A DNA stretch of 64,000 nt from a bacterium (GCA_037200965.1 JBBCGK010000001.1:433992-497991); one strand, 5' to 3'; counted from the stretch's first letter, positions 38,559 to 59,149 are shown. The notes: generated by a model not told the origin, from the sequence alone. Numbers and translations are program-made.

Positions 38559-38594
38559 GTTGCACAACCTCCTTTTTACGAACGATCCTGCAGG
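38559..38594 (+). repeat. Array repeat R1
   Basis: Exact 36-mer, 16 bp from the annotated tatD start codon. Confidence 0.98.
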
Positions 38595-38603
38595 TTAAAA
38601 GCC

Positions 38604-38912
38604 GTGACTGATTTTCATCGAAAGCACGGCTACGACGTGGGGACCGGGAACATGGCGGTCATGTCGCTCAGAATTGGACTACTCATAGAAGAACTGGGTG
38701 AACTCCACGCCGTGGTTTCAAAGGGTGTTGGCGACATTTCAGAGGAACACGCAGACCTCTTGTATCTACTTCTTGGAAACTGCGTCACGCTTGGTATTGA
38801 TATAGAAACTGCTTTCTTTGCAAAACATGCCATTAACATGCGGAGGGAAGCCAAGGTAGTGAGGGGGAACCGCCGTGTATCGGATTGGTCCCATGAAAAA
38901 TCTCAGGAATGA
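38604..38912 (+). CDS. MazG-like all-alpha nucleoside triphosphate pyrophosphohydrolase (probably 5'-truncated at R1)
   Basis: LLIEELGELHAVV and EEHADLLYLLLGNCVTLGIDIE are the paired acidic helices of MazG/HisE-type NTP-PPases. The frame is open back through R1, and the only start available is a GTG 9 nt after the repeat. Confidence 0.7.
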   Translation: MTDFHRKHGYDVGTGNMAVMSLRIGLLIEELGELHAVVSKGVGDISEEHADLLYLLLGNCVTLGIDIETAFFAKHAINMRREAKVVRGNRRVSDWSHEKSQE

Positions 38913-39940
38913 AAGCTACAGTCATCATCGGTGCGCAGTATGGCAGCGAAGGAAAAGGTAAGATTGCAGCTTATCTTTCAGATGAGTTCGCTCGTGCAGT
39001 TCGAACTGGCGGGCCAAACTCGGGGCATACCGTCGAGCGCAATGGCACGTTCTATCAAGTTCGAGCGGTCCCTAGTGCCTTCGTGAACCAACAATGTCGC
39101 CTCGCGATTGGTGCCGGGGCCATAATAAACACTGCCGTACTATTAGGAGAATTAACGGCATGTGGTATTGTCGAGGGGCGTTTGATAGTTGACCCTCAGG
39201 CTGTCATAATTGATGAAGAATATCAAAATTCGGAACTAGATTTAATCAGTTCGATTTCGTCCACCGGACAAGGCGTTGGTGCAGCAATCGCAGCTAAGGT
39301 CTTACGTCGGAAAGTAACTCTCGCAAGAGACGTGCCCGAGTTGCGGCCACTGCTTGCCGATGTTGCTGGCACGATCAATTCCGAACTCCAACAAGGCCTA
39401 GCTGTAATGATTGAGGGGTCGCAAGGATTTTTCTTGAGTTTGCATCATGGTTACTATCCGTTTGTAACAGGCAGGGAAACGACCGCAAGTTCATTTTGCG
39501 CCGAAGTAGGAATCGGTCCCAAAGATGTGGGTCAAGTGATTGGAGTTCTCCGCACCCACCCGATTAGAGTTGGCGGCCCTTCGGGACCTCTTCAAGACGA
39601 AATCGATTGGCAGACCGTCACCGCCGAGTCGGGCTACCCAACACCGCTGTTAGAGATAACTACCGTTACCAAACGAATTCGACGCGTCGGGAGGTTCTCA
39701 ATGGCCGAAGCTAAACGATCTTTGATGATCAATTCGGCGACCCAAATTGCTTTAAACTTCGTCGACTACTTGGACCATGCAAACTTTGGACTTAGAAGCT
39801 ACACCGCACTGACTGCTTCAACAAAAAAATTCATCGACGCACTAGAGACACAAACGGGAGTTCCCGTTTCGCTGGTGGGCACGGGGCCCCGTAACAGCGA
39901 TATGATAGACTTACGACGCGAAAAGAACCTCCCCCATTAG
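38909..39940 (+). CDS. Short adenylosuccinate-synthetase-family enzyme (PurA/PurZ-like)
   Basis: P-loop GAQYGSEGKGKI (PurA has GDEGKGK), GPNSGHTV, STGQGVGAA, IEGSQGFFLSLHHGYYPFVT, TTVTKRIRRVG and GTGPRNSD all parallel PurA motifs. At 343 aa it is like the archaeal/phage short forms. Its start overlaps the MazG-like stop (ATGA). Confidence 0.8.
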   Translation: MKATVIIGAQYGSEGKGKIAAYLSDEFARAVRTGGPNSGHTVERNGTFYQVRAVPSAFVNQQCRLAIGAGAIINTAVLLGELTACGIVEGRLIVDPQAVIIDEEYQNSELDLISSISSTGQGVGAAIAAKVLRRKVTLARDVPELRPLLADVAGTINSELQQGLAVMIEGSQGFFLSLHHGYYPFVTGRETTASSFCAEVGIGPKDVGQVIGVLRTHPIRVGGPSGPLQDEIDWQTVTAESGYPTPLLEITTVTKRIRRVGRFSMAEAKRSLMINSATQIALNFVDYLDHANFGLRSYTALTASTKKFIDALETQTGVPVSLVGTGPRNSDMIDLRREKNLPH

Positions 39941-39948
39941 ATACCAGC

Positions 39949-40701: not shown

Positions 40702-40714
40702 GTAAGTGAGCAAC

Positions 40715-40774
40715 ATGGATATTGGAAAGGAGCCTGACTTCGCCTCGGATGCCTACTTTGATAATCCGCAACAA
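40715..40774 (+). pseudogene. 5' fragment (20 codons) of an unknown gene, cut by R2
   Basis: ATG at 40715 opens MDIGKEPDFASDAYFDNPQQ, which runs straight into the repeat. Confidence 0.35.
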
Positions 40775-40810
40775 GTTGCACAACCTCCTTTTTACGAACG
40801 ATCCTGCAGG
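40775..40810 (+). repeat. Array repeat R2
   Basis: Exact 36-mer. Confidence 0.98.
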
Positions 40811-40812
40811 AC

Positions 40813-41427
40813 GATATCCACAAATCACTGCTGCGCAGCGCGGGCCTCGCGCATCTCTCGGCGGATGAGATTGGGGACTTGAGGGACTTGGCAGCGCATG
40901 AGCTACGGAATGAGACCGCGGACCGCGGTGGTCTCATGGCGGGATTGCGACTGCGCCTGCAACAATGCGACACACGGCTATCACGCCTTACAGACGCGCT
41001 CCTCGACCACCTCATCGAAAAGCAGGAATACGAAGCCAAGAAGGCCGCGCTCCTGGGCGAGCGGCGCGAACTGCTAGACAAACTGGAAAGCCCGGAGGCT
41101 TCGCGTCAACCCGCCGACGGCGTGCTGCAAGCATTGGAACTGCCAGATGTCGTGGAAACACGCTACGAAATGGCTTTGCCGGACCAACGGCGCCGCATTG
41201 CGTCTGCAATCGCTTGGAACCTAACTGGTAGCGGAAAAGAGGCCGTACCTGAGCTGAAATCTCCGTACCGGGAGATCGTACAGTGGCGTCTTTCCAATCC
41301 GGTGCGCCGTAACGGGGAGCGATCGGAACCTGACATAAAGCTGCTATACGAAGCGCTCAAAGAAGTCTGCCGGCGAGAAGACAAGCCGCCGCAACGTCCC
41401 CAACGTCCTGATGTCTCCGGCATATAA
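40813..41427 (+). pseudogene. Large serine recombinase, C-terminal fragment (5'-truncated at R2)
   Basis: The frame is open from the first base after R2. The coiled-coil segment LRLRLQQCDTRLSRLTDALLDHLIEKQEYEAKKAALLGERRELLDKLE is typical of the C-terminal domain of large serine recombinases. No catalytic N-terminal resolvase domain is present. Confidence 0.65.
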
Positions 41428-41494
41428 GGCGACATACTTTTTCGAGAATTGTCGCGCCTTATGCCGCGTGAATGTCAGGCAGATGCTGTTCTGC

Positions 41495-42724
41495 ATGGAT
41501 GCGAGCATCAGCTACTTCGCCCGCACCAACTTCCGCAACCGAAACCAGCTCTTCGGTGTGAGGCAAGCCGACCGTCTTTCGCACCTGTACGTCATCGGCA
41601 AGACTGGCACGGGCAAGTCCACCCTCCTTGAAACCCTCGCCCGGCAAGACCTTCGGGCCGGGCGCGGCTTCGCCCTCATAGACCCGCACGGCGATCTCGT
41701 GGAACGGATCGCGAGGGACGCGCCGGAAGCCGTCTATCTGAACGCCCCCGATCCCTCCCAGCCCTTCGGCTATAATCCGCTCCGGAGGGTCAGGGACGAC
41801 AAGATACCGCTTGCCGTCTCGGGCTTCCTCGAAACCCTCAAGAAGCTCTGGCCCGACGCGTGGGGCGTGCGCATGGAGCACGTCCTTAGGAATACGCTGT
41901 ATGCGCTATTCGAGCAGGAGGATGCGCGGCTTCCCGATATCCTCCGCCTCTATGCCGACGAGACATACCGGAAGGCGCTCGCCAAGGGGATTAGGAACGA
42001 TACCGTCCGCCGCTTCTGGCTCCATGAGTTCGAGCACTTCCACTTTCGCCAGAGGGCGGACGCCGTGGCTCCGATACAAAACAAGATCGGGGCGCTCCTT
42101 GCCGACCCCACGCTCTATCGCATCCTCGTCGAGCCAAAGGAGGATATCCGCTTCCGTGCCCTCATGGACGGCGGCGGGGTTCTTCTGGTCAATCTCTCGA
42201 AGGGCAAACTTGGCGAGGACAGCTCGCACATCCTCGGCGCGCTCATCGTCTCGACCCTGGGCCTTGCTGCCTTTAGTCGGGCCGACAGTCCCCCAACCTC
42301 CCGCCGCCCTTTCTTCGTCTATATCGACGAATTCCAGTCCTTCACGACCCTTATGCTCGCCGACATGATGTCGGAGCTGCGGAAGTACGGCGTGGGCCTT
42401 ACCTTGGCGCACCAATATATGCACCAGCTTGAACCCGAGATACGGCATGCGGTTCTGGGGAACGCTGGGACGCTCATATCATTCCGTGTTGGCCCCGAGG
42501 ATGCGTCAATCCTGGCGAAGGAGTTTCAGCCGACGTTTGACACACACGATCTCCTGAACCTGCCTAACCACCATATCTATCTGAAGCTGATGATTGATGG
42601 GGTGCCGGGCGGGGCGTTTAGTGCAAATACAGTCGATCATTCGACGCGGGGAGAGACAAAGCTCGCACCGCTACGAAGGACTTCAGACTTGAATGCGGGC
42701 GAAAGCGCGTCTGACTATGTGTGA
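41495..42724 (+). CDS. P-loop ATPase, type IV secretion coupling-protein-like (TraD/VirD4-type DNA-binding domain)
   Basis: Walker A VIGKTGTGKST, Walker B FFVYIDEFQSF and LAHQYMHQL. The start is taken at MDASISYF, because the track ORF start at 41411 overlaps the recombinase fragment. Confidence 0.7.
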   Translation: MDASISYFARTNFRNRNQLFGVRQADRLSHLYVIGKTGTGKSTLLETLARQDLRAGRGFALIDPHGDLVERIARDAPEAVYLNAPDPSQPFGYNPLRRVRDDKIPLAVSGFLETLKKLWPDAWGVRMEHVLRNTLYALFEQEDARLPDILRLYADETYRKALAKGIRNDTVRRFWLHEFEHFHFRQRADAVAPIQNKIGALLADPTLYRILVEPKEDIRFRALMDGGGVLLVNLSKGKLGEDSSHILGALIVSTLGLAAFSRADSPPTSRRPFFVYIDEFQSFTTLMLADMMSELRKYGVGLTLAHQYMHQLEPEIRHAVLGNAGTLISFRVGPEDASILAKEFQPTFDTHDLLNLPNHHIYLKLMIDGVPGGAFSANTVDHSTRGETKLAPLRRTSDLNAGESASDYV

Positions 42725-42859
42725 GCGGGATCACGTTTTTTTGCAGATGGCACGCCCGCGTGGGCTGTTTTGGTAATTGCCATAGCGTCTTGGCAACAAC
42801 TGGGCGTCAGTACCTGGCTTCCCTCACAGGTTGAATATATTACAGTATAGCTCAACCAT

Positions 42860-43864
42860 ATGTTGAGTCGCCGCATGCCCGGTATTACCGAATTACTTTT
42901 GAAAATCGCGCCCAAGATCGGCGCAAAAGTGCTGATCGAGCCTGAGTGGGGCTACGTCGGGCAAATCGCCTTCCGAAGCGGTCGCAAGCGGTACTTCCGG
43001 TTCTCCAGCGTTGACGTGAATACGCTGGGCGCATCGGAAGTCGCGAAGGACAAAGATTTTGCGAACTTCTTCATGAAGCACATGGGTTATCCCATCGTGA
43101 AAGGAAAAACGTTCTTCCGGGACGACTGGGCAGAGACAATCCGCTCCAAGCGAAAGATCACGGCCGCCTATCGATACGCGCGACGGCTGGGATTTCCGGT
43201 GATTGTGAAGCCTAACAGCGGCAGTCAGGGGAAAGCAGTATGCTTGGCTCGCACGAAGCGTCAATTCTATCGCGGAATGCGGGCGACCTTTGAGGTGGAC
43301 AAAGTCGCGCTTGTCCAAATACCTGTTTCAGGAAAAGACTACCGCATCGTGGTCTTGGACCGAGAAATCATTTCGGCGTACTACAGGGTTCCGCTAAGCG
43401 TCGTCGGCAATGGAAAAGCTTCCGTAGCGGCGTTGCTCAAGTCGAAGCAGAAAGAGTTTCGGCGCGCCGGGCGCGACACGGCGATCAGGGCCGACGATCC
43501 GCGCATAGCGGAAAAGCTCGAGCATCAGGGACTGAGCTTCGCTTCCGTTCTCCGAAAGGATCAAAAGGTTTTTCTTTTGGATAACGCCAACCTTTCGACG
43601 GGCGGCGAATCGGAAGACGTAACGGAAAGCGTGCACAAGGAGTTCAGGAAAATCGCGGTGTCGCTTACGAGGGATATGGGACTGCGCCTGTGCGGCGTCG
43701 ATCTCATGATAGACGGGGATATCTCGGAGCCGCCCAAAACGTATTGGGTGCTTGAAGTCAATTCGGCCCCGGGGCTCGATCATTATGCGAAAAGCGGCGC
43801 GGCACAAAACAAAATCGTCGAAAAGATGTATACGACGGTGCTTAAGAGCTTGGATCGTGACTAG
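42860..43864 (+). CDS. ATP-grasp enzyme (cyanophycin-synthetase / RimK-like ligase domain)
   Basis: FPVIVKPNSGSQGKAV, DYRIVVLD, ANLSTGGESEDVTESVH and VLEVNSAPGL match ATP-grasp ligase motifs. Confidence 0.7.
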   Translation: MLSRRMPGITELLLKIAPKIGAKVLIEPEWGYVGQIAFRSGRKRYFRFSSVDVNTLGASEVAKDKDFANFFMKHMGYPIVKGKTFFRDDWAETIRSKRKITAAYRYARRLGFPVIVKPNSGSQGKAVCLARTKRQFYRGMRATFEVDKVALVQIPVSGKDYRIVVLDREIISAYYRVPLSVVGNGKASVAALLKSKQKEFRRAGRDTAIRADDPRIAEKLEHQGLSFASVLRKDQKVFLLDNANLSTGGESEDVTESVHKEFRKIAVSLTRDMGLRLCGVDLMIDGDISEPPKTYWVLEVNSAPGLDHYAKSGAAQNKIVEKMYTTVLKSLDRD

Positions 43865-43956
43865 CTCGTGTATAGTCCATACGACCGATCTTCCTGACAC
43901 CAATAGGCATCGGCCAAATCGTGATTGCTGACCAACGTTTTGCGCCGAGCGACCGC

Positions 43957-44262
43957 CTAGTCGGGATCGTAGGGATTATTGGTATCCGTGCCATTGCGCG
44001 AGGAACCAGACGGCGAACTATACGGATCGACGCGCTTGTGACCTTGCTCGCCCGTATAGGGGTTCACGTTTGGATACGTCGAGTAATTGTTATAGGGATT
44101 GCTGTCAGGCGATGAGCGATGGTGTGGCGGAACATACGTGCCGTCCTTCCGCACATAGCCTCTGACACTGACGTCCTTCGCTGCCGCCTCAGCGCCAGTG
44201 GCCAGCAGGGTCGTGAAGACCAAAAGGGCGGCAAAAATCTTGCGCATATTAACTCCGATCAA
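43957..44262 (-). CDS. Small secreted Pro/Asn/Tyr-rich protein
   Basis: Signal peptide MRKIFAALLVFTTLLATGAEA followed by a low-complexity mature part. Confidence 0.5.
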   Translation of the reverse strand: MIGVNMRKIFAALLVFTTLLATGAEAAAKDVSVRGYVRKDGTYVPPHHRSSPDSNPYNNYSTYPNVNPYTGEQGHKRVDPYSSPSGSSRNGTDTNNPYDPD

Positions 44263-44357
44263 AAATGCGGCTCGATGCTAGTTTAGTGGCTGGCGCAGGG
44301 CCAGAGGAATAATCTTCGCAAGCGTGCGTCAGGCCACGCCCTACGGTAACGCGTCGA

Positions 44358-45341
44358 TCAGTTCGCCTCGTCGAAAATCCCATTCAGGATCGCCCCAAGC
44401 CGCACCCCTGCCGCCTGCAAGCGCTCTTCCACGATGGCGGCGCGGTCTTCCTTGTAGTTGCCGTCGGGCGCGAAGACGCGAACGGCGCCACCGGTATACG
44501 TCTCGCTGTCTTCGGAATAGCGGCAGGTGGTGCCGGAGAGCGTACAGTATCCGGTGTCGGGCGCGCGGGAGACGGTGAGCGATTCGTTGGCCCATACCAT
44601 CGGATCGAGCGACGCCTTCCACGTTGCCCGCTGCTCGTCCGTGATTTCCTTTTGAAGAACATTGCCAAACGCCTCGCGCCCAGGGCCTGCTGGCTTCGTC
44701 TGCGCGATGTGGAGATCACGCATGACTTGTTCGGGAATGCAGGTGTCCCACACGGTATGGAGCGCGGTTTTGCCGTCATAGGCGCAGCCCGAGACGCCCT
44801 TCACGCCGACGCTGTTGCCGCCGCGATCATCGGCATACGAAATGTGGAGCGGCTGGTGTATGTCGCCGAGCCAGTGCCCGAGGAATTTGAGGGCCGTGCG
44901 CTTCTTGTCGGTTGAGGCATTCGGGTCTTTGAGGATGGCGATATCGGCGGGGATGGCCGTGAAAAGGCACGTCGCCGCATTCACGCACTTGGCCTCGGGG
45001 AAGCTCGTCCAATCGCGCGGCATATTGATGAAGTGCTCCGCCCTCCGGCTGCTTTGCACATCGCCCTTCTCGTCCGGCCAGGTGCAGGCCCCGTGGAAGG
45101 TTCTCGGTATCTCCTTGCCGTCAGCGTCCTTAAGCGGGGTTTCTGAGCGGATAAGCTTGTTGACCGCCTTGCGGGCCGTCGGCGTGAGCTCCTTGTATGC
45201 GATCTCGCAGACCGCCTCGTGGCCGGTGCCGCCGAAGGCGAGGGCACCGCTCGTTGTGAGACAAAGACTGACGAAGCCACCAGCTCCAAACAGCGCAAGA
45301 AGAACCCGCCGACGTCCACCCATGTACCCGCTCCCCCTCAC
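44358..45341 (-). CDS. Secreted S1/P1-family zinc nuclease
   Basis: Signal-like N-terminus, FGGTGHEAVCEIA (WG..GH equivalent), HFINMP, and LKFLGHWLGDIHQPLH (the H..GD.HQPLH zinc motif). Confidence 0.8.
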   Translation of the reverse strand: MRGSGYMGGRRRVLLALFGAGGFVSLCLTTSGALAFGGTGHEAVCEIAYKELTPTARKAVNKLIRSETPLKDADGKEIPRTFHGACTWPDEKGDVQSSRRAEHFINMPRDWTSFPEAKCVNAATCLFTAIPADIAILKDPNASTDKKRTALKFLGHWLGDIHQPLHISYADDRGGNSVGVKGVSGCAYDGKTALHTVWDTCIPEQVMRDLHIAQTKPAGPGREAFGNVLQKEITDEQRATWKASLDPMVWANESLTVSRAPDTGYCTLSGTTCRYSEDSETYTGGAVRVFAPDGNYKEDRAAIVEERLQAAGVRLGAILNGIFDEAN

Positions 45342-45453
45342 TATTCGTGCCCAGGATGCGAGGACTCGCCCTAGCCGAAGAACGGATGATGCCCGGATGA
45401 TTTCACCCGTCCAAGAGGAATGTGCGCCTTAGACTTCGTATCGGGCCGGGCCT

Positions 45454-46359
45454 ATGCTGCTTCTATTGGTGGGGTGTTTCTCAGGGGGTATTGGCATGAC
45501 TAGCGGCACGCGAGTTTTTCCGACGCGTTCGTATCGGGCATCATTTCCCATTCATGCGCTTCTTGCCGTCTTCGCGCTTCTCGTCGCGGGTGCGTATGGC
45601 CCGGCCGGTTCGGCCTTGGCCGCGACCAGCGCGGCGTCCTTCTGCCTTGACGCATGCCCCGAGGGCGCGCCGGCAAAGAACAAGACGGTCGTGCACCATG
45701 TCTATGCGCTCAGCTCGAACCCCGACACGAAATTCGCCGATTGGGTCGCGTACAAGATCTCCAAAGCGACCATCGGGTCGAACTGTTCGCGCAAGTGGGC
45801 GAAGGACCCGGACCTAGCGGCCGGCACCACGCTCAAGCCCGCCGATTACAAGGACATCAGTGCGGCGCTCCAGTCCGACCGGGGCCATCAAGCGCCCTTG
45901 GCAAGCCTATGCGGCTCGAAGTTCAATGCCGAGGCGAACTATCTCTCGAACATCACCCCACAAAAGTCCGACCTCAATCAGGGCGCATGGGTGCGGCTCG
46001 AAACCGCCGAACGCAAGCTCATTACGGGCGGCACCGCGAAGACCGTGTATACCGTCACCGGGACGCTCTACGAAAAGAAGATGCCGCCGCTTCCCAAGGC
46101 GAGCGTCAAGCACAAAGTCCCTTCGGGCTATTGGAAGATCGTCGCCGTCGAGACGGACGACGGGATCGACGCCGTGGCGTTCGTCATGCCGCAGGATACA
46201 CCCAAAGCCGCCGATTATTGCGAAACGCGCACCACCATCGGCGACGTTGAGACGCGCTCGGGCCTCAAGTTCTTCCTCGATCTCAACGAGACCGACCGCA
46301 CGCAGCTTGAGGAGAGCGAGGCGAAGACCGGCCTCTATGAGGATTTGGGCTGCGAGTAG
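45454..46359 (+). CDS. Secreted DNA/RNA non-specific endonuclease (NucA/Serratia nuclease family)
   Basis: Signal/TM segment, the catalytic SDRGHQAPLASL (DRGH motif) and downstream NITPQKSDLNQGAW. Confidence 0.8.
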   Translation: MLLLLVGCFSGGIGMTSGTRVFPTRSYRASFPIHALLAVFALLVAGAYGPAGSALAATSAASFCLDACPEGAPAKNKTVVHHVYALSSNPDTKFADWVAYKISKATIGSNCSRKWAKDPDLAAGTTLKPADYKDISAALQSDRGHQAPLASLCGSKFNAEANYLSNITPQKSDLNQGAWVRLETAERKLITGGTAKTVYTVTGTLYEKKMPPLPKASVKHKVPSGYWKIVAVETDDGIDAVAFVMPQDTPKAADYCETRTTIGDVETRSGLKFFLDLNETDRTQLEESEAKTGLYEDLGCE

Positions 46360-46381
46360 CACGAGCGCGGGAAGATACGGC

Positions 46382-46669
46382 ATGCGCAAGGCATTCATAC
46401 TGACGCTGGTGGCGTTCTCCGCACTTGCGGCAACCCCACTCATCGCGCGGACCACGGATGCGGAAGTCCGGGGACAAATGATCCGCGAGTCCATCGCAAG
46501 CTATCCCGGCAACTGCCCGTGTCCGTACAGCACGATGCGAAACGGGCGCTCCTGCGGCGGGCGAAGCGCGTACAGTCGGCCCGGCGGATATGCTCCGCTG
46601 TGCTACCCGTCTGACGTTTCGGACGATATGGTGCGCGGCTATCGAAGCACGCATGGGCTCGGGAACTGA
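46382..46669 (+). CDS. Small secreted Cys-rich protein
   Basis: MRKAFILTLVAFSALAATPLIA signal followed by a Cys-rich mature region. It uses an internal start within the longer, implausible track ORF 45860-46669. Confidence 0.5.
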   Translation: MRKAFILTLVAFSALAATPLIARTTDAEVRGQMIRESIASYPGNCPCPYSTMRNGRSCGGRSAYSRPGGYAPLCYPSDVSDDMVRGYRSTHGLGN

Positions 46670-46865
46670 TCGATCCGATTGATATCTGGCGAAGCGCGCA
46701 AACGCTCATCTCGCTCTATGGCGATGAGGCGGAACAGTTCGCGCTTCGCCGCGCCGCTACCCTGCTCGGCGAAGGAGACCGGGAGGGCCATGCGGCAATG
46801 GCAAGCGTTGCGGAAGCGGTGAAGAAGCTGCGGCAGGAGCGGCCCGAAAGCGGCGATGCCGTCCA

Positions 46866-47339: not shown

Positions 47340-47349
47340 TCTCAGCCTG

Positions 47350-48393: not shown

Positions 48394-48434
48394 AAAAATG
48401 CATAAGGCGCCAGGCGGCGCCGTGGAGTAATTCC

Positions 48435-49601: not shown

Positions 49602-49603
49602 GA

Positions 49604-49840
49604 GTGCTCGACATGGCCGGAACGCTCGATTGCTTTGTCCGCCTTGTTGAACTCGACACCTGCGTGCGTGAGTTGGCACAGCGCAAGCGCGCGAATAATA
49701 GGATCAGCATATCCGATCTTGATGACGTTCTCCTGGCGCTTGCTGAAGCTCGGGAAACGATCCAGGACGACGCGTATGACGAGATGGCGAGGCGGCGAGC
49801 GATAACAACGGCGGACATAATGCAGTTCGCAAAAGATTAG
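49604..49840 (+). CDS. Hypothetical small protein
   Basis: 78-aa ORF starting 2 nt after the GNAT stop. No motif recognised. Confidence 0.35.
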   Translation: MLDMAGTLDCFVRLVELDTCVRELAQRKRANNRISISDLDDVLLALAEARETIQDDAYDEMARRRAITTADIMQFAKD

Positions 49841-50107
49841 CGAAAGCGCGCGGCTCTATTCAAAACGCGGCCTACGACAAGTTCGCAACTATTCGTCCGA
49901 CAACACTCGCCCGATAACGGATCATTCGGCAACCAGAGGATAATGAGTATATCGCGGGAGCGAAGCATAGGAGACGATGCAGTGCATAGTCCGTCATAAA
50001 TTCAACGGCGGCATCCTGATGGTAGCTGTATAACAGCGTGGTGCCGGAACTTCCCCTTGTAGCCAATACCGGGCTTCGTTACAAAGCTTCAAGGGGAGGC
50101 TATATGC

Positions 50108-51743
50108 ATGCTTAATCACACCTTTGGAGTGATCTCGCTGGGTCGTTTCCTCACTGCTATACGTCCTGCGCGTTATGCGGTCCGCTCTGCCAATCGAACA
50201 CGCTTCGGCCAAGGGCTGGTCTCGGTCCGCACCCTAGTCGTCGCTGCGTGCGTTGCAATGAGTTGGCTAGCCGCATTGCCGCAAGCCGCCATCGCGAGCA
50301 GCGTCTTGATGAGCGTGCCAGGCGAAAGCGACGTAAACTCGGCGGGTGCCTTCACATATTCACTTCCTATTGCAGTTCCGCCCGGGACTGCCCGCATCGT
50401 ACCGCGACTGTCGCTTGATTATTCCAGTCAAAGCGGCAATGGCCTCCAAGGCCTCGGCTGGTCGCTTTCCGGATTGCCGGCAATAGGAAGATGCGCGCGC
50501 ACGGTGGCGCAAGACGGCGTGCATGGCAGTGTCAATTACGACGGCAGCGACAAATTCTGCTTGGAAGGCCAGCGCCTAGTCGCCCTAAGCGGCGTCTATG
50601 GCGCGAACAATACGGAATATCGTACCGAAATAGAGAGTTTCACCAAAATTATTTCATACGGAACGGCGGGTAACGGGCCAGCCTCGTTCAAAGCGTGGAC
50701 CAAGTCCGGTCAAATCCTGGAATTCGGAAACACGGCGGATTCCCGTATCGAAGCGGTCGGCAAGACAACGGTGCGCGCGTGGGCCGTCAATAAGGTTTCC
50801 GATGCCAAAGGAAACTACGTCACGGTCGAATACACCGACGACCAAACTAACGGAGAGGCGTATCCGGTTCGGATTGATTATACCGGCAATCCCAACGCAA
50901 CGCCGGTGGTTATGCCGTACAATTCCGTGCAGTTCACATACACAACGCGCGCAGATATCACGATTGCCTATCAGGCCGGTTCGCAGCAGAAGATCACAAA
51001 ACTTCTCACCAATATTAAGACTTATCAAGCCGCGAATTTGGTTTCCGACTATCGCCTTGCCTATCAAGCCGGCTCATCGCTCGCACATTCGCGTCTAACG
51101 TCCATCACGTTATGTGATGGGTCGGGTACGCCGGTATGCCTTGCCCCCACGACCTTTGGCTGGCAGGGTGGCAGCGGTAGCCTGCCGACAATGACCGGGA
51201 CCGCATCCACTATCATTCCGACGCAAAGCGGTGATTTCAACGTTGACGGATTAACAGACCCCTTTGTCAAAGCCCCGTATTTTGGAACTCAGAGCGGAAC
51301 GTTCGTCGCGAGCGGCATGACTATAAGCTATACCGACCCCATATCGGGATTGCCGTGGTCGGGTCTAACGGCTTTCCCCAACACAATGGTCGGGTTTGTA
51401 TTGGGTGATACCGACGGAGACGGGTATAGCGACGTCACCGCGATGCGGGGTATCGCACATGGCGCTTATGCCAGGTTGGTGGTTACGCGCAACGACCAGC
51501 TCGGAAATCTTGGTCAGATCGGCCTGATCGATCCGCTGCATGCTGGCGCCATATTCAGCGGCGACTTCAATGGAGACGCGCGCACGGACGTTTTCGTGAC
51601 GGGTGTAGCTTCTTATAACAGTACGACGTATCTGAGCCTGGGGACCGGATCGTTCACCGCCATCAACATGAGTTCGGTATATGAACCCATCACGACCGCC
51701 GATTTTGATGGTGACGGATGCACCGATTTCTTGGGATCGACTA
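50108..51743 (+). pseudogene. SpvB/TcdB-type toxin-complex protein, N-terminal part with FG-GAP/VCBS repeats (3'-truncated at R3)
   Basis: AGAFTYSLPIAVPPGTARIVPRLSLDYSSQSGNGLQGLGWSLSGLPAIGRC is the SpvB N-terminal signature. Later GDFNVDGLTD, GDTDGDGYSD, GDFNGDARTD and ADFDGDGCTDF are FG-GAP/VCBS repeats. The protein sense ends at the repeat, and the track ORF beyond 51743 is read-through into unrelated DNA. Confidence 0.75.
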
Positions 51744-51779
51744 GTTGCACAACCTCCTTTTTACGAACGATCCTGCAGG
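51744..51779 (+). repeat. Array repeat R3
   Basis: Exact 36-mer. Confidence 0.98.
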
Positions 51780-51793
51780 TTTCCGTTAATCTT

Positions 51794-53134
51794 CTAAGTC
51801 TCTTGTTGAGACGCAACACAGCCCCACGCCGCTTTTACCGAGTCATAGATAAAGCCTACCGTCAGAACCTTGGATATAACCGTCGTGGTTGGCAACGCCG
51901 TGCCTTCTGCCACGAACGACGCCCCCCAGGTAATCGCCCGGGCCGTACCGTCGTCTTTGATCCTGAAGATGAGCGTCTGGAAGTTCGTGGGTGTACCGGA
52001 GAGATTTGTCGTCATCGACGTGATCGCGGTCGCAAGAGCAGTAATCGTCACGGCGTCGCACCCATCGCTATTCACTGTAGGGGTTGCCGAAGAAACAATC
52101 GTCGTTATGCGTGGAGTATTTCTCTTATTTGCAAGAGTCTGTGTACCATTGTTAGTCACGACACTGTCAGCGTTTGTGCCTGCAACCGAGATTCTCAAAT
52201 CTCCTGTTCCAACGGTAAGCACTCCTGAGGTGTGCGTTGCAACCCAGTTACCGTTACTAATGTTCCAGGTAAAACCAGTAGCACTAAAGAGATCGGCCCA
52301 TCCAAGCGCGGTCGTCCCAAGAGCGGCAATATCATTCGTGACCGGGGAAAGAGCGGAGGAGGTAAGTTGTATCGTTCCTGTTCCGTTGATAGCCAGACCA
52401 AGCGTATTGGTTGTAGGAAGGTAGAGGCGATTACCGGTAGCAGTTGAAGAGGTAGGAGCAAAGCCAGCCGCAGTTGCCAGCGATGCCAACGTCAAAGCTC
52501 CGGCGTCGGTCAAGGTTGCATTGGTGGATGTTGCTTGTGCGCCGCGCGAAGTACCATCGGACCGAAGTATAGATTCATCTGTGGCAAAAGTGGCGGCAGC
52601 GGTGACTACATTACTCGGTATATCGCTTGTAAGAGCGACGGTACCCGTGGACGCCGGAAGGGTAATGGTGTTAGTTCCAGCGATTGCCGTAGGGACGAGG
52701 GCGATGGTACCGGAAGTTGAACCCGAGAAGGTTACACCCTGGGTACCGGAAATGATGCCAGTGGTGTCAGCAATAAGCACTGCCGAGTTCTGGATCAGCT
52801 TACCAGTGGTAGTGTCGAAGCGGGCCACGGCGTTATCAGTTGCTGAAGCCGGGCCTACAACATAGGTAGCAAGGGAAGCAGTCGTAGGAATAACATAGCC
52901 GCTTTGGAGCGCTATAGCGATCGTTCCGGAAGTAGTGATCGGTACGCCGGATACCGTAAGTCCTGTCGGTACCGTAGCGTCAACGGATGTAACCGTACCT
53001 CCTCCTCCGGGGAGGTCTATAAGAAGCCTGTGCGTCGTCGGGTCTGCATATAGACGCACAGGCGTCTTGCCGTCAGCGCTTGAAGCTGCTATCAGCGTTG
53101 GAACATCGTTCTGGTCTCGGTAAGCATCAGCCAT
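51794..53134 (-). CDS. Phage tail-fibre-like protein
   Basis: 446 aa, Thr/Gly/Ala/Ser-rich beta-repeat sequence with AVARFDTTTGKLIQNSAVLIAD and similar segments typical of phage fibres. Its stop is 14 nt from R3. Confidence 0.6.
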   Translation of the reverse strand: MADAYRDQNDVPTLIAASSADGKTPVRLYADPTTHRLLIDLPGGGGTVTSVDATVPTGLTVSGVPITTSGTIAIALQSGYVIPTTASLATYVVGPASATDNAVARFDTTTGKLIQNSAVLIADTTGIISGTQGVTFSGSTSGTIALVPTAIAGTNTITLPASTGTVALTSDIPSNVVTAAATFATDESILRSDGTSRGAQATSTNATLTDAGALTLASLATAAGFAPTSSTATGNRLYLPTTNTLGLAINGTGTIQLTSSALSPVTNDIAALGTTALGWADLFSATGFTWNISNGNWVATHTSGVLTVGTGDLRISVAGTNADSVVTNNGTQTLANKRNTPRITTIVSSATPTVNSDGCDAVTITALATAITSMTTNLSGTPTNFQTLIFRIKDDGTARAITWGASFVAEGTALPTTTVISKVLTVGFIYDSVKAAWGCVASQQET

Positions 53135-53136
53135 AA

Positions 53137-53327
53137 TCAGGTACTTTGTACGAGTAATTCCCCGGCACTATTGGCGTAGAGCACCACAGGCGTCTTGCCG
53201 TCAGCGCTTGAGACAGCCATGAGTGCAGGAACAAAGTTTGCGTCCCGCAGATCGTCTACCGGCCCAAAGTCCGACCCGGTAGTGTCGTCGTCCGCCATAA
53301 GCGCATGTGTTGAAGGGTCAGCAACGA
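53137..53327 (-). pseudogene. 3' fragment of a second tail-fibre-related gene (5'-truncated at R4)
   Basis: ...ADPSTHALMADDD...LMAVSSADGKTPVVLYANSAGELLV parallels the N-terminus of the downstream fibre protein (LIAASSADGKTPVRLYADPTTHRLL). The frame is open into R4, and the apparent GTG start lies inside the repeat. Confidence 0.55.
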
Positions 53328-53363
53328 GTTGCACAACCTCCTTTTTACGAACGATCCTGCAGG
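53328..53363 (+). repeat. Array repeat R4
   Basis: Exact 36-mer. Confidence 0.98.
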
Positions 53364-53460
53364 AGTATGAGTACTGATACCGTCCAATCTGCCATTGAAT
53401 ATGCGCGACACTCGCCGTCGTGACGACGTTGAGTTAAGTCAATGGCGATTTATGTTACTG

Positions 53461-53982
53461 TCACCGGACCGGCACGAACCCTTCGGGAAGAAACTGCGTC
53501 GGGTCCTTCCACGGTTCAATAGCAACTGCTTTGGGGTATTTGCTTATCATGTAAGCATCGGTGCAATACACCAAACTTTCGGGATCATCGTCCGAAGGCT
53601 CAAGGCCTGAAAATTCAACCATCACAGATTTCTGGTTGGTAATTTTTCCAAAGGTGTCAATGAACCGCTTGATTTTGTCAAACTCACGCACAAAATCGTC
53701 GGGCTCAAATAGATAGGAATACACTACTACTGTATTCTCGCCGACGATCCGTTCGGAACCGTCCTCATTTTTCACGCGGAAACGCCCAGCGGCGAGCGGC
53801 AATTGGGTTACACCGCCATTGATCCGCACCATAATTTCCATGGCGCTATCGACCCATTTGTCAAAATTTTCAACAGGCTTCTGATCGCGATCTTGGTTAG
53901 GCAAATAAACTGCAAACCGTTGTACCGATTCAGATGTATCGGCACCTAGCGCGGTCTTGAGGTCAAAATCTACGAGCGCCAT
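53461..53982 (-). CDS. Hypothetical protein
   Basis: 173-aa ORF with normal composition. No motif recognised. Confidence 0.5.
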   Translation of the reverse strand: MALVDFDLKTALGADTSESVQRFAVYLPNQDRDQKPVENFDKWVDSAMEIMVRINGGVTQLPLAAGRFRVKNEDGSERIVGENTVVVYSYLFEPDDFVREFDKIKRFIDTFGKITNQKSVMVEFSGLEPSDDDPESLVYCTDAYMISKYPKAVAIEPWKDPTQFLPEGFVPVR

Positions 53983-54068
53983 GATCGCTTCCTATTAGCC
54001 ATCAATGAAAAGGCCCCATAGCCGGGGCCTTAAAGTAGGCAAAATGCCAAATTGCAACGCTGATGCCG

Positions 54069-54738
54069 CTACCGCGGTCTTGAAGGTCTCCGAATTCCGA
54101 GCACCGTTTTAGGGTCCCGCTTGATCTTTAGAAACCGTCCAAATCCCGAACGAGCGTCTTCAGGTTTCTCCGCTTGTTGGGAAGCTGAACGAATCGCTGT
54201 CACTATCTCGTTAGCAGCTTCTGATATGGGCGGCAAATTTTGCCGGTTATAGTCGCCTGGCGGGATTCCCGCGTGCTTCTTTTTCATATGATTTTCTCCT
54301 GTTTCTTCACAGGGTTGCGACCCATCGGTCTCAGCCCCGTGTTGATCGGGAGAAAGCCCTTCAAGAATCGGGCCGCGTACGTCGGTTTCCCAGGTTAAGG
54401 CTTCGACGCGAATATCCTGGCCACGGTCCGTCCTTATGCTTTCGCGATGGGGACCATACCCACATAGTACCACAGCGGCATGCGTAGTCGCGCCCGAAAT
54501 CTCGTGGACTATATCCGCAGCAGCGCCAATACCAGCGCCCGTTACTATCAAGTCATAGACCATCAAGATGCGATCACCGGAAAGCGGTTTGTCTGCCGTT
54601 ATTGCTACGCCCTTCGCCCAACGCGTCTCGCGATAGATGCAGGCGGGCAATCCGGTTTCGGCGACGAGGGACGAGAGCATCGAAATCGCGCCGACCGGCC
54701 CCATCTCTTTTTCGATAAAGCACAATCGCGTAATGCCG
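54069..54738 (-). pseudogene. Phosphoribosyltransferase-domain protein (probably 5'-truncated at R5)
   Basis: GDRILMVYDLIVTGAGIGAAA is the PRPP-binding loop of type I PRTases. The frame is open back into R5, with only a TTG start at 54725. The usual 40 or so N-terminal residues of the PRT fold appear to be missing. Confidence 0.55.
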
Positions 54739-54774
54739 GTTGCACAACCTCCTTTTTACGAACGATCCTGCAGG
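54739..54774 (+). repeat. Array repeat R5
   Basis: Exact 36-mer. Confidence 0.98.
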
Positions 54775-55372
54775 AAACCATGAGAGAACCCGAGTTGATC
54801 TCGGTGGCCACGATCTTCAAAGGCGACAACTCGTTAAATTCCTCATAGTTCAGGTCAGCGAACCGAATTCGATCAGGCACTCCATCGTGATCACGACCAT
54901 TTGCGGCATATAATTCCCGCATACGTTCTCGAAGAACTGTGTTGATGAATTCACGAATGGGCGTTGTGGTGAAAAAGCCTAAGTGCCGCCATATGCGCAG
55001 CATTCCAAACGTAACTAGGGGAGCTGTTAAAAAAGACAATAATACACCCCCCAACGCCGTAGCGGACAATGCCCATCGAAGTCCCTGGCGGAGGCGAACA
55101 AATCTACGCCAATCATCAGCCCCCAATAACGTTACGGGGGTCAAGTTATGTAGGCTGAGAATATTTTGATCCCTAATGTCGGGATTCATCAAAGTCGAAG
55201 CACTGTATCCCGCCGCGACTAGCGTTGCCACGATCGCGCCAGCTGACGCCCCGGCTACACCTACGAAGGCGAGCCCATTCTTCGCGGCACCCTCCAAAGC
55301 ACCAATATGCGCTATGCCCTTAGCACCGCCACCTTCGAATATGCCAAAGGCTGGCCTCTTAGCGTCCATCAC
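54775..55372 (-). pseudogene. Patatin-like phospholipase, N-terminal part (3'-truncated at R5)
   Basis: FEGGGAKGIAHIGAL (oxyanion GGGxxG) and GASAGAIVA (GxSxG nucleophile). The catalytic Asp (DGG/DGA) region is absent because the sequence runs into R5. The track ORF 54605-55372 continues as unrelated read-through. Confidence 0.75.
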
Positions 55373-55505
55373 TGTATGTATCCTTTCGCAAATCAGGTCG
55401 GGGCCTGCACAAACGACAGAACATCGGACAGGCTGGTGAAATAATGAGATACCAGCCTTCGCACATTGCTGTTCCGCATACAGATACAGCAGTTGCTAGT
55501 TCAAA

Positions 55506-57077
55506 TCAGTTCAGTTGCTCCCGCACCAACGAAAGATCGTTGAACAACGTTCTCGTAAGATTCGGGATTTTTTCCAGTTTGTCTGCTTGTATTAACTTCG
55601 CCATAAAACGAATGCTTCCCTCCACTCGCTCGTCATAGAATATTTCGTGCAGAAACTTCCGCCCCTGCCGCAAATCCGTAGCATCAAACAGAAATTCCAG
55701 CTTGGCTTCGTTATCGACCATAGCAACTGCACGCCAAAAGAATCGAGGAAAATTCGCTGTCAGGAGGCTCTTGCGGACTATCTTGCTTAGGGAGGAGCGC
55801 GAAACAATCTCGCGTTTCAGATCGCTTGGGCCATTCAAAAATATGTCCCACTCGAAACGAGCCATATCACTATTGCTCGATAATTTTTTAAGCATCTCTA
55901 AAATATGATCAAATGCCAGGATAGCATCGTACACGTCGTCAAATCGGACGCGAATTTTGCTATAGAGCGGCACGAGACACAAATCCGCGCGAGCACGGGT
56001 TATCTTCGTCCCACGCTTTCGAGACCAAGTTGTCGTTATGATGTTAGATGGGCCGCTCAGCTTGATCTCAGAGTATGGGCCGATGCCGTCGTCATGCGCA
56101 TACAGTTTGGTTATGCGCGTCGCCCGTAGAAGAAAACCCGTGCGAGGTTCGGGTACTATGGGACCAGTTGTGGGCCCAAGGCCGCTGAGTGCGACCGCGT
56201 GAAATGCTCGTTTGCTTTTCTTGGAGCGTTCTAAGTTGAAGTCAAAACTCAGAATGATCGGAATATTGCCCCTCAAGAATGCATTTGCTGCGGCTTGGAT
56301 ATTGGCTCGCTCGGGCGTCATAAACAAATCCGCTTCGAGACCGACATTGCGCAAAACGCCAGCCATTTGATCGATATCCAAGCCGTCGTTCGGGAGAGCT
56401 AGGCCAGCTGTTGGCAGCGAAGCAAACGCTCGTTTGGTTATTTCAATAGGTGATAAGATTGGATTGTCATACAAATTCGCCGTGCCATGCAGTGTAGTCC
56501 ACAGAGCGCTGGTAGCGCATGCGCCAACCTCTCGGTCTTGTTCTTGAAAAGGCAGCGCACGTACAGGCAGATCTATGCCGAAAAGATTTGGTACATATCC
56601 GCGCTCAGTGAGGAAGCGACTCGATGGATTACTCCCAACCGGCGCCAAACACGTTCGCCCAATGATGGTTTCGGGAAGAGGTTTGACAACTACAAAGCCG
56701 TGATATCCCAAGACGTCGAACCTACACTCACCGCGGCCCGAAACGAAAAGCGCTTCGACCATATCTTTATCGAACGGTTGCCGAAAAAAGTGAATTCGTG
56801 AACATTCTTTCGGATAGTTCGCGTGGCATCTCGCGTAGTATCCTGTATGATCTTCGGCGAAATGCTTGTCGATGTAGTCGCGCTCAAATACAAGAGTTTC
56901 GATTTTCGCGGCTTCACAGTAACGAGCTAGAAAAATGACCTGGGGCTTTTGTGCAATTTGCTCCAGTCTAGGTTTAAATGCTCCGGCAACAAAAAGCGCT
57001 ACCAAGTTCTCTCGATTGTACTTGAGTACTTGGTAGCGCTCGCCCATGTGATCTAACTGAATATCCGCGTACGTCAC
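55506..57077 (-). CDS. Hypothetical protein with a putative papain-like cysteine peptidase core
   Basis: 523 aa. QEQDREVGACATSALWTTL (Gln...Cys), RAFHAVALSGL (His) and YAHDDGIG (Asp) occur in the order expected for a papain-fold / C39-like peptidase. The assignment is by motif pattern only. Confidence 0.5.
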   Translation of the reverse strand: MTYADIQLDHMGERYQVLKYNRENLVALFVAGAFKPRLEQIAQKPQVIFLARYCEAAKIETLVFERDYIDKHFAEDHTGYYARCHANYPKECSRIHFFRQPFDKDMVEALFVSGRGECRFDVLGYHGFVVVKPLPETIIGRTCLAPVGSNPSSRFLTERGYVPNLFGIDLPVRALPFQEQDREVGACATSALWTTLHGTANLYDNPILSPIEITKRAFASLPTAGLALPNDGLDIDQMAGVLRNVGLEADLFMTPERANIQAAANAFLRGNIPIILSFDFNLERSKKSKRAFHAVALSGLGPTTGPIVPEPRTGFLLRATRITKLYAHDDGIGPYSEIKLSGPSNIITTTWSRKRGTKITRARADLCLVPLYSKIRVRFDDVYDAILAFDHILEMLKKLSSNSDMARFEWDIFLNGPSDLKREIVSRSSLSKIVRKSLLTANFPRFFWRAVAMVDNEAKLEFLFDATDLRQGRKFLHEIFYDERVEGSIRFMAKLIQADKLEKIPNLTRTLFNDLSLVREQLN

Positions 57078-57538
57078 ACTGTGAACGGGATACGCCGACG
57101 GTCAGGAGAAATCTGGTTGGCTTGTTCTCGACTTTCAATTGCCTTGAGCATTGGCGAAAGACGCTTAGCGACTTGCGCAGTAAGATCAGTTCTGGAGGCC
57201 GTCGCCTTGGACTTGGGCCGTGCAGAACTCTTCGTCTTTTTGTGACGCATAGCGCAACCTCCAATTTCGGTGAGCAGGATGTTGCCCTCAGTTCCAGCCC
57301 GGCGGGTATAAACTCCAACACGGGGATCAAAATCAAGCTCATGGACTTGACTTCCTGGAACGGGGCCGCCTAGGGCTCCCCTGTAACGAATCAGCCCTGT
57401 TCTTAACGTACCACGAGCGCCTTCGTATCCCCAATATTTTGTATGTGGATAATCCACCAACACAAGTTCTTTGAATGGTGAGGCTGGCCGTTGCCTTTCC
57501 TCAGTGGCGTCGCCGTCCGTTGACCCAATCGCCTGCAT
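57074..57538 (-). CDS. Hypothetical protein (first gene of the S5 operon)
   Basis: 154-aa ORF overlapping the next gene's start by 4 nt. It has a basic C-terminal half and no recognised motif. Confidence 0.45.
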   Translation of the reverse strand: MQAIGSTDGDATEERQRPASPFKELVLVDYPHTKYWGYEGARGTLRTGLIRYRGALGGPVPGSQVHELDFDPRVGVYTRRAGTEGNILLTEIGGCAMRHKKTKSSARPKSKATASRTDLTAQVAKRLSPMLKAIESREQANQISPDRRRIPFTV

Positions 57539-57677
57539 AACAATTTAATGCCTTCCTTCTGGCAGCAGACCACTAGGAGCGGCAGACGGCCGTTCATTAT
57601 CAGCGTGGATCATTGGCTGGACCGAGCCCCAATCGGTGACTGATTCGTACGGCTAAAGACCGCTCGGGTCAACTAAG

Positions 57678-57713
57678 GTTGCACAACCTCCTTTTTACGA
57701 ACGATCCTGCAGG
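57678..57713 (+). repeat. Array repeat R6 (cas-proximal)
   Basis: Exact 36-mer, 32 bp from the cas2 stop codon (57746). Confidence 0.98.
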
Positions 57714-57745
57714 AGTCCGTGTATATTGAGCGGTAACGCGAATTA

Positions 57746-59094: not shown

Positions 59095-59149
59095 GGGGCG
59101 TATATACTACCGCCTTGACCTAGTGTCAAGGATCACGCAACGCCCTCGC

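Follow-up and report, generated by a model that had tools for sequence, protein, structure and literature searches.

The present study analyzes a repeat array in a window of 64,000 nucleotides (nt), by which is meant the whole stretch of DNA considered here (GCA_037200965.1 JBBCGK010000001.1:433992-497991), from the metagenome-assembled genome (MAG) of a bacterium of the candidate phyla radiation (CPR) with a genome of about 0.96 Mb. The locus is an array of the CRISPR type, lying beside a Cas1-Cas2 module, in which six perfect direct repeats spanning positions 38559-57713 enclose five inserts. Canonical spacers are nearly uniform at about 25-50 nt, rarely reaching about 70 nt, whereas the inserts in the place of spacers here measure 1375-10933 nt, roughly 40 to 300 times the normal length. 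Very probably the locus is CRISPR-derived and effector-less, with Cas1-Cas2 integrating long fragments without a length ruler. A sequence-only reading of the same DNA, from which the cas2-cas1 pair (57746-59094, minus strand) abutting repeat R6 was absent, had likened the inserts to fragments captured as in spacer acquisition, and the likeness holds up well: the array begins 32 nt after cas2, its repeat is kin to canonical 37-nt repeats, one insert is an excerpt from a donor without the repeat, and the contents are unique. On the minus strand the order is cas1-cas2-32 nt-R6-S5-R5-S4-R4-S3-R3-S2-R2-S1-R1, with the features as follows (R, repeat; S, spacer, given without strand; L and a number, here and below, label the contigs and loci compared).

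38559..38594, minus strand, repeat R1: perfect copy, farthest from cas2, 16 nt from the tatD start codon
38595..40774, spacer S1: 2180 nt, 100% identical to L002 9687-11866
40775..40810, minus strand, repeat R2: exact copy
40811..51743, spacer S2: 10933 nt, piece of an integrative or conjugative element
51744..51779, minus strand, repeat R3: exact copy
51780..53327, spacer S3: 1548 nt, fiber-like fragment and complete phage fiber-like gene
53328..53363, minus strand, repeat R4: exact copy
53364..54738, spacer S4: 1375 nt, complete open reading frame (ORF) of 173 residues and 5'-truncated phosphoribosyltransferase (PRTase)-like gene
54739..54774, minus strand, repeat R5: exact copy
54775..57677, spacer S5: 2903 nt, non-coding end, two ORFs and 3'-truncated patatin gene
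57678..57713, minus strand, repeat R6: nearest cas2, reading CCTGCAGGATCGTTCGTAAAAAGGAGGTTGTGCAAC in the cas1-to-cas2 direction; Logan contig L001 ends inside it
57714..57745, minus strand, leader: 32 nt from the cas2 stop to the first repeat, ending ...CACGGACT and fitting the motif tt.a.t..c.GGCT
57746..58042, minus strand, cas2: 98 residues, divergent, with a conserved CxSC motif; Pfam E value 0.004 (weak), PADLOC Cas2b 9e-7
58039..59094, minus strand, cas1: 351 residues; Pfam Cas_Cas1 1e-63, TIGR00287 221 bits (cut-off 72), PADLOC Cas1 3e-68

The 36-mer GTTGCACAACCTCCTTTTTACGAACGATCCTGCAGG occurs in the window in six exact plus-strand copies, at 38559, 40775, 51744, 53328, 54739 and 57678, where the number expected in shuffled sequence is 0. 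Aligned with 80-nt flanks, the copies start and stop their identity abruptly at the 36-mer, and the flanks are unrelated, as the sequence-only reading had said of the two sides of each repeat. No further copy, exact or degenerate, was found in the window, the next best match having 16 of 36 positions mismatched; this ruled out the possibility that S2 consists of several spacers with decayed repeats, and S2 is a single 10.9-kb insert. There were no inverted repeats at the array, the repeats being identical direct copies, and the inserts of the window contain neither a transposase nor terminal inverted repeats. With no inverted repeats and no adjacent recombinase, an integron, a shufflon or an att-site array was ruled out. 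Since its minus strand contains AAGGAGG, the repeat was also considered as a cassette that supplies a promoter or ribosome-binding site to minus-strand genes. This was rejected: start codons follow the repeat at inconsistent positions, the AAAGGA core goes back to canonical repeats as an ancestral feature, and scans for promoters and terminators gave signals at chance level, with none in the repeats. No Rfam family matched the array, and RNAalifold predicts no structure for the repeat RNA.

Recognizable genes are cut at seven of the ten insert ends. S1 comprises the last 105 residues of a 297-residue MazG/PRA-PH gene, a PurZ-like adenylosuccinate synthetase of 343 residues (matching phrog_1211, annotated 2-aminooxy adenylosuccinate synthetase, at 6e-72), a 250-residue ORF and, at its right end, the first 20 codons of a 402-residue cytochrome P450 gene (40715-40774). 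S2 opens with the C-terminus of a serine recombinase (40813-41427, plus strand) that aligns from its first residue onward to residues 313-514 of a 516-residue L002 enzyme, with 63% identity, so that 312 residues including the catalytic domain are gone. There follow, in order, a TrwB/HerA-like ATPase, an ATP-grasp protein, an S1/P1 nuclease, a non-specific endonuclease, a helix-turn-helix protein, a LysR regulator and a GNAT acetyltransferase, and the insert closes with the N-terminal 545 residues of a TcB/SpvB-type protein (50108-51743, plus strand), of which the solved relative YenB has 1491. S3 carries a complete phage fiber-like gene of 446 residues (51794-53134, minus strand) that stops 14 nt before R3; its C-terminal domain matches phrog_3030, and relatives are encoded in 379 of the candidate IMG/VR stretches. 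On the R4 side of S3 a fiber-like ORF of 63 codons (53137-53327, minus strand) is cut at its 5' end and open at the edge, repeating the fiber N-terminal motif from the middle of a motif unit. At the right end of S4 the PRTase-like gene (54069-54738, minus strand) has homologues of 337-354 residues that align from the fragment's first residue, and about 120 residues or more of the N-terminus are gone. The patatin gene at the left of S5 (54775-55372, minus strand) keeps the GxSxG region and covers Pfam profile positions 2-118 of 191, running ...IVATEINSGSLMV straight into R5 ahead of the catalytic Asp; S5 also holds ORFs of 154 and 523 residues with no assigned function, and its R6-proximal 139 nt are non-coding, with no open frame of more than 12 codons. 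Gene orientation within the inserts is mixed, and the missing gene halves were not found on the other side of the repeats.

All of these cuts had been proposed from the sequence: S1 beginning inside a MazG-like ORF and ending 20 codons into a new one, S2 running from a serine-recombinase C-terminus into an SpvB/Tc-toxin gene, S3 ending inside a tail-fiber paralogue, S4 inside a PRTase gene, and the patatin of S5 broken before its catalytic Asp, with no complementary halves across the repeats. So had two ends at which no gene is cut, namely the fiber gene that stops short of R3 and the non-coding stretch by R6. Alignment of the boundary ORFs with full-length relatives, which the same reading had suggested, put sizes on the truncations (intact source genes of 297 and 402 residues for S1, 312 residues missing at one end of S2 and 545 of a YenB-like 1491 present at the other, 337-354-residue homologues for S4, a profile match ending at 118 of 191 for S5) and found that the ORFs are not complete as they stand. 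One called ORF of 706 residues (50108-52228, plus strand) is a chimera of the 545-residue TcB/SpvB N-terminus, translated R3 and a chance frame antisense to the fiber gene; because it is called, the NCBI contigs have no call for the true 446-residue gene. The truncated MazG fragment is annotated by NCBI as an ordinary gene, MEJ0053610.

The clearest view of what an insert is comes from S1. Over its 2180 nt it is 100% identical to L002 9687-11866, which lies on the 4.0-Mb contig JBBCBH010010880.1 of the same assembly as a circular 960,259-nt contig that also carries the array. The match starts and ends exactly at the repeat edges, there is no repeat in the donor at those points, and both edge genes are whole there (MazG/PRA-PH 297 residues, P450 402 residues). 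The donor region is an integrative element with a serine recombinase, a TrwB-like ATPase, a tyrosine integrase, AlpA and a relaxase. A glycosyltransferase flanking it has, as its only named close homologues, proteins of Rhizomicrobium sp. at about 71% identity, and the donor is probably an alphaproteobacterium, a weak inference from this one comparison. The donor break points fall in or next to the AT-rich palindromes CTTTTAAAAG and CAATTG, which, for one donor locus, may be chance. The PurZ-like gene of S1 (38604-39940) stands beside a MazG/PRA-PH pyrophosphohydrolase that in the donor (L002 9111-11032) is fused to an AAA kinase-like domain in a 297-residue protein; we take the pairing to resemble the phage PurZ/MazZ genes for 2-aminoadenine (Z) genomes, and here such a pair belongs to an integrative element in a bacterium of 4 Mb.

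For the other inserts the sources are indicated at the protein level, S2 being related to the same kind of integrative element as the S1 donor (through its serine recombinase) and S3 to phage proteins. No source of S2-S5 turned up at the DNA level: when all inserts were compared by megablast with the phage and plasmid collections nothing matched, exact-protein look-ups returned S2, S3 and S5 genes in array copies only and not in donor loci, and IMG/VR held no relatives of the 523-residue protein of S5. An intact source locus, such as the sequence-only reading had proposed to seek, was found for S1 and, in these searches, for none of S2-S5.

The donor of S1 bears directly on the possibility that Cas1-Cas2 is a bystander and that the repeat takes up inserts through recombination, homologous or site-specific, involving for example repeat-carrying mobile elements or an unidentified recombinase. 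A recA gene does lie in the window at 32362-33411, 36-nt perfect repeats are long enough for RecA-mediated exchange, S2 contains a serine recombinase fragment, and some relatives have rearranged loci, such as those in which cas1 fragments abut repeats. Recombination at pre-existing repeats fails, though, because the S1 donor has no repeat at either break point; the exact repeat is also absent from JGI metagenome contigs and IMG/VR, the S2 recombinase has no catalytic domain, and cas1-cas2 are the only conserved neighbors across 36 loci. Recombination between repeats would furthermore move existing blocks and would not create unique blocks each with a new repeat. We consider this explanation very improbable.

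The module itself has the features of an integrase. In Cas1 the catalytic residues E181, H241, D253 and E256 are invariant in 30 clade members, and the clade profile matches the CRISPR Cas1 structure 4n06 in the PDB at 6e-47 and the solved casposase 6opm at 1.6e-34, so by profile comparison the clade is closer to CRISPR Cas1 than to casposase. The cas2 gene overlaps the cas1 stop by 4 nt. Its AlphaFold model (predicted local distance difference test score, pLDDT, 86) has a beta-alpha-beta-beta-alpha-beta fold, and the top 23 PDB matches in Foldseek were all Cas2, with template-modeling scores (TM-scores) of 0.6-0.7; on the strength of the predicted structure the 98-residue gene is a divergent Cas2. 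Of 47 distinct loci, nearly all have the leader motif tt.a.t..c.GGCT immediately 5' of the first repeat; internal repeats are not preceded by it.

The same architecture recurs in a lineage. A Cas1 search gave 481 proteins at E<=1e-10, and the few source names among the top 120 matches were all Patescibacteria (Paceibacterota, Parcubacteria, Nomurabacteria), to which related genome loci add Kaiserbacteria, Adlerbacteria and Taylorbacteria. Among 45 genomic and 66 metagenomic loci compared, a repeat profile found copies in 60. In about 60 loci with the repeat type, mostly from Patescibacteria, the repeat begins 0-50 nt after cas2, and in the 60 loci the copies are always on the same strand at kilobase spacing. 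Lengths among the 42 distinct spacers run from 140 to 10933 nt (median about 1.4 kb); eleven are only 140-673 nt and none is of canonical length. The list has 44 entries, two of which span the cas operon itself and hold no acquired insert (L025, 8291 nt; L035, 1081 nt). Every spacer is unique to its array and none is common to different organisms. Across 36 loci, cas1 and cas2 are the only genes conserved within 10 kb on either side. Outside this group, 13 loci with Cas1 of 39% identity or less have related 37-nt repeats at 65-80-nt spacing, in Methanospirillum, Methanocalculus, Bacteroidales, Iainarchaeum and metagenomes, the locus of Methanospirillum stamsii being type III-A; long and canonical spacing are never mixed within a locus.

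Loci are homologous at the nucleotide level only within a module of about 1.45-1.5 kb, which takes in cas1 and cas2 with a short upstream stretch as well as the leader and first repeat. It stops exactly where that repeat ends, with both borders sharp and the flanks unrelated (57678-59130 compared with L007, L008, L053 and L081). This module may itself be mobile. In the MAG MFD05512.bin.1.167 there are four copies about 99.7-100% identical to one another (subgroup L022, L023, L025, L031, L032, at about 9899-11402), and the left border of the module in this subgroup is a hairpin, TTGTCCACG..CGTGAACAA. In several relatives cas1 fragments abut repeats at exact repeat borders. In L083 (2170-2266) cas1 is cut after ...YGKP with a repeat directly next, L112 (6040-6129) and L113 have cas1 residues 1-115 followed by a repeat, and in L025 a further repeat (3038-3074) lies 7 kb upstream of cas1. 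In L035 (9966-11120) the stretch between one repeat and the next consists of cas1 residues 112-346, cas2 and the leader, and this spacer is 99.8-100% identical to intact cas1-cas2 copies in the same MAG (L022, L025, L032). Such fragments suggest either capture of DNA from kin or own CRISPR loci or rearrangement mediated by Cas1.

Several loci (L012, L014, L016, L031, L032 and L094) have a single repeat after cas2, at about 11.1-11.4 kb, and no second copy in 7.8-9.7 kb downstream, the downstream sequence being unrelated over 9 kb or more in several cases; these are either empty arrays or arrays with spacers longer than the flank covered. For L032 the next repeat is about 12 kb away, as seen in L035. 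The system was also present in MAGs not labeled Patescibacteria, namely candidate division FCPU426 (L021, L023, L024, L041) and "uncultured proteobacterium" (L022, L025, L031, L032, L035), one contig among them being 1.6 Mb; unless these bins are mislabeled, the system is not strictly confined to CPR bacteria.

The array is real and no artifact. It is found in three NCBI assemblies: in GCA_037975565.1, as the circular 960,259-nt contig JBBCBH010010897.1, whose ends (L003 and L120) meet inside S2; in GCA_015655515.1, as a 22-kb contig 99.96% identical over 47300-64000; and in GCA_015689235.1, with array genes on a 6.6-kb contig. An assembly break in S2, where two NCBI contigs end at 46708 and 47300, was considered and is explained by the ends of the circular contig, which Logan contig L123 bridges. 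Logan contigs from SRR28211700 and SRR10968228 carry the array and break at or inside repeats, as a multi-copy 36-mer would lead one to expect at k=31; L005 is exactly S1, L119 is S3 with 28 nt of repeat on each side, and L001 stops 26 nt into R6. On one side the chromosomal flank holds ftsK, recA, efp, rpsF-ssb-rpsR and tatD, on the other metG, an AI-2E transporter and a class II tRNA synthetase, and the NCBI protein accessions are consecutive across the window from MEJ0053600 (RecA) to MEJ0053630 (the methionyl-tRNA synthetase MetRS). Elsewhere in the window two large chromosomal ORFs of 774 and 405 residues (5144-7468 and 12586-13803, both plus strand) had no Pfam or PADLOC match, and neighboring proteins of 544 and 658 residues (24587-28302, minus strand) had a peptidoglycan-binding domain as their only match; such uncharacterized ORFs are typical CPR content.

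It could still be argued that contigs were joined chimerically through a short repeat, since CRISPR repeats tangle assembly graphs and the window comes from a MAG, or, in a variant, that ordinary short spacers were later interrupted by mobile elements. Three independent assemblies and the contigs of two sequencing runs agree, the reads would have to contain the repeat on either side of every insert, and the kilobase-spacer architecture is seen in long-read and short-read MAGs from many studies. The variant meets the difficulty that S1 matches its donor up to both repeat edges with no remnant of a short spacer and that the inserts have neither a transposase nor terminal inverted repeats. Either version is scarcely credible.

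From these comparisons we infer that Cas1-Cas2 is the inserting enzyme and that insertion takes place at the cas2-proximal repeat. The two 3'-OH ends of a long duplex would attack both borders of the leader-proximal repeat, and gap repair would then duplicate the repeat, once per insertion. Inserts of 0.14 to about 11 kb of double-stranded DNA would thus be placed by normal acquisition chemistry minus the length ruler and end-trimming. Fragments would be drawn from whatever DNA enters the cell, and contributors would include mobile elements of neighbors (S1, S2), phages (S3), ordinary chromosomal genes and, in some relatives, the bacterium's own cas locus. Edge genes would be cut and orientation mixed because the end points of fragments are largely arbitrary. 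The 140-nt minimum may reflect, going by the persistence length of DNA, the looping of a duplex so that both its ends reach one repeat. Such a mechanism is consistent with perfect repeats stacked on the same strand, with inserts that are unique and with the conservation of the leader junction.

How arbitrary the end points are was assessed by reading inward from every spacer end and taking the longest run free of stop codons. For spacer ends (n=66) the median was 97 codons, with 61% of runs at least 80 codons; shuffled spacers gave 44 codons and 10%, and random genomic positions 141 codons and 72%. That boundaries cut genes in mid-frame, as first noticed from the sequence, is therefore seen both in the seven of ten ends in the window and in the excess of the median over shuffled spacers. 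Relatives have further examples, with a protein kinase domain in L019 cut at Pfam profile position 157 of 263; a dnaX gene also occurs, open at the edge of its spacer.

Several observations weigh against integration of random long fragments by Cas1-Cas2. Compared with length-matched random fragments, spacer ends cut frames somewhat less often (median run 97 against 134 codons, p=0.047), and the longest complete internal frame takes up 0.47 of a spacer and 0.33 of a random fragment (p=0.007). No convincing protospacer adjacent motif (PAM) or end motif was seen in 44 spacer intervals; the only signal was the rarity of G as first spacer base after ...GTGCAAC (3 of 44), and both spacer ends are mildly AT-rich at about 65% A or T. 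Across the clade the leader spans just 0-50 nt. A 6-bp hairpin proposed by hand at the 3' end of the repeat is 86% paired, with no covariation. An effector or Cas6 may be encoded elsewhere, since the scan that found no other cas or defense gene covered the larger ORFs of the 64-kb window and, in 36 relatives, the 10-kb flanks, in which none is conserved. S1, the sole spacer with an exact donor, sits farthest from cas2, a position that is unexpected if new spacers enter beside cas2, unless all five are recent. Finally, the same five spacers are present in all datasets, and no integration event was seen.

For the most part, then, the ends are arbitrary; complete genes are in mild excess, which would not be predicted if capture were purely random. 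The earlier proposal of random fragment capture is supported, with the caveat of slightly fewer cuts and mildly more numerous complete genes than randomness would give. Capture, or later retention, may not be fully random, and the excess could come from short donor genes, from preferred DNA ends or from retention of useful genes. The last of these is close to a different explanation, a gene-capture platform built from Cas1-Cas2 and CRISPR repeats but integron-like in function, in which complete usable genes are kept and cut edges are collateral. Besides the excess of complete frames, many 1.0-1.5-kb spacers of relatives contain one complete gene (isochorismatase, short-chain dehydrogenase, methyltransferase, DKNYY protein, polyprenyl synthetase), S2 has about eight intact genes, there is no effector, and self-derived and housekeeping inserts are tolerated. 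Yet most ends in the window cut genes, orientation is mixed, promoter-like signals are nowhere above chance and never in the repeats, and the eleven shortest spacers are too short for a gene. That different organisms have no spacer in common gives no sign of long-term retention, and the enrichment in complete genes could reflect shorter genes in donor mobile elements. Such a platform is possible but doubtful.

Alternatively, the array may be immune memory, transcribed from the cas2 side into long transcripts that act on matching invaders either unprocessed or once a Cas6, RNase III or an effector encoded elsewhere has cut them. This has in its favor descent from canonical adaptation modules, type III-A among them, the origin of S1, S2 and S3 in mobile elements and a phage, and the perfect maintenance of repeats within each array. 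Also retained is the conserved 3' end of the repeat, ...TTGTGCAAC, presumably the origin of the 8-nt handle of the CRISPR RNA (crRNA) in related type III repeats. No effector or Cas6 was found, however, among the larger ORFs scanned in the window or in the 10-kb flanks of the 36 relatives, and PADLOC found no defense match among eight unassigned ORFs of the window. Spacers holding dnaX, a protein kinase, a polyprenyl synthetase and the bacterium's own cas genes would carry a risk of autoimmunity, the repeat has neither an Rfam family nor a supported structure, and genes lie in mixed orientation relative to the direction of the array. We regard immune memory as unlikely, slightly more so than the gene-capture platform. 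Use of the array for crRNA-guided cleavage is judged improbable, at low confidence, because there is no nearby effector, genes of chromosomal type are captured and self-derived DNA is tolerated.

Compared with known systems, the locus is most like a canonical CRISPR adaptation module, especially one of type III-A or I-D-like with 37-nt repeats. Both have an intact Cas1 active site, the Cas2 fold, the order cas1-cas2-leader-array, inserts unique to each array and at least one exact foreign source. The repeats, identical direct copies of 36-37 nt, belong to one family (CcTGCA...AAAGGA..TGTGCAAC here, CTTGCA...AACAAGGACTGCAAC in the canonically spaced loci). In contrast to canonical arrays, spacers have no uniform length (140-10933 nt as opposed to about 30-45 nt), there is no effector or Cas6 nearby, the leader is at most 50 nt, no PAM is evident, and there are self-derived and housekeeping inserts. 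Casposons are comparable in having a Cas1-family integrase that inserts kilobase-scale DNA with duplication of a short target, as is proposed for the present locus. A casposon, though, is one defined element with terminal inverted repeats, usually a family B polymerase and no Cas2, whereas here the cargo is arbitrary and differs from unit to unit, repeats are direct, Cas2 is present, a polymerase is lacking and insertions are stacked. Integrons (IntI, attI, attC) likewise have tandem kilobase-scale inserts at a recurring site beside the gene for the inserting enzyme, and some inserts here, too, are one complete gene. They differ in that this array has no tyrosine recombinase beside it, identical 36-mers in place of imperfect attC palindromes, cut end genes, mixed orientation and no attI or Pc-like promoter signal; the sequence-only reading had set integron cassette capture aside, and the lack of an integron integrase and of any attC-like imperfect palindrome bears it out. 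Mini-arrays and solitary repeat units carried by viruses and plasmids resemble the many relatives with a single repeat after cas2 and arrays of 1-8 repeats, but their spacers are of normal length and they are on mobile elements, while the present loci are chromosomal with kilobase spacers. In the literature covered, including the 2025 CRISPR-Cas classification and leaving most subscription journals outside, no description of kilobase spacers or of this clade was found. Standard CRISPR finders, as far as is known, cap spacer length, and kilobase-spacer loci have probably been overlooked by them.

To our knowledge every characterized Cas1-Cas2 integrase sizes its substrate, at about 30-40 bp, and the ruler is central to models of CRISPR adaptation. 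If the present reading is true, integration chemistry is separable from length control, and the proposed transition from casposons to CRISPR would have a living counterpart in the clade, probably by secondary derivation in this case. It would also be a distinct biological use of CRISPR chemistry, with a natural enzyme placing long arbitrary DNA at a defined site, and a site-specific integrase for long arbitrary DNA that needs no homology would be of clear interest as a tool. Pairs of donor and recipient such as S1 and the 4-Mb genome record DNA exchange and could help to identify the hosts of uncultured CPR bacteria.

As to the role of the array, our preference, held with low confidence throughout, is first for a store or entry point for acquired DNA that serves gene acquisition in genome-reduced, DNA-scavenging symbionts, second for a defense memory read out as long transcripts, and third for a by-product of a self-propagating cas1-cas2-repeat module. 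More broadly, there is a somewhat less than even chance that this widespread, mostly Patescibacteria Cas1-Cas2 clade, with neither a length ruler nor a link to an effector, is a general DNA recorder or gene-capture device, the sources of which would include host bacteria, phages, mobile elements and kin. As far as we know, ultra-small symbiotic bacteria are reported to be largely devoid of CRISPR defense systems; in such organisms the module, if it works as proposed, would be a candidate route of horizontal gene acquisition.

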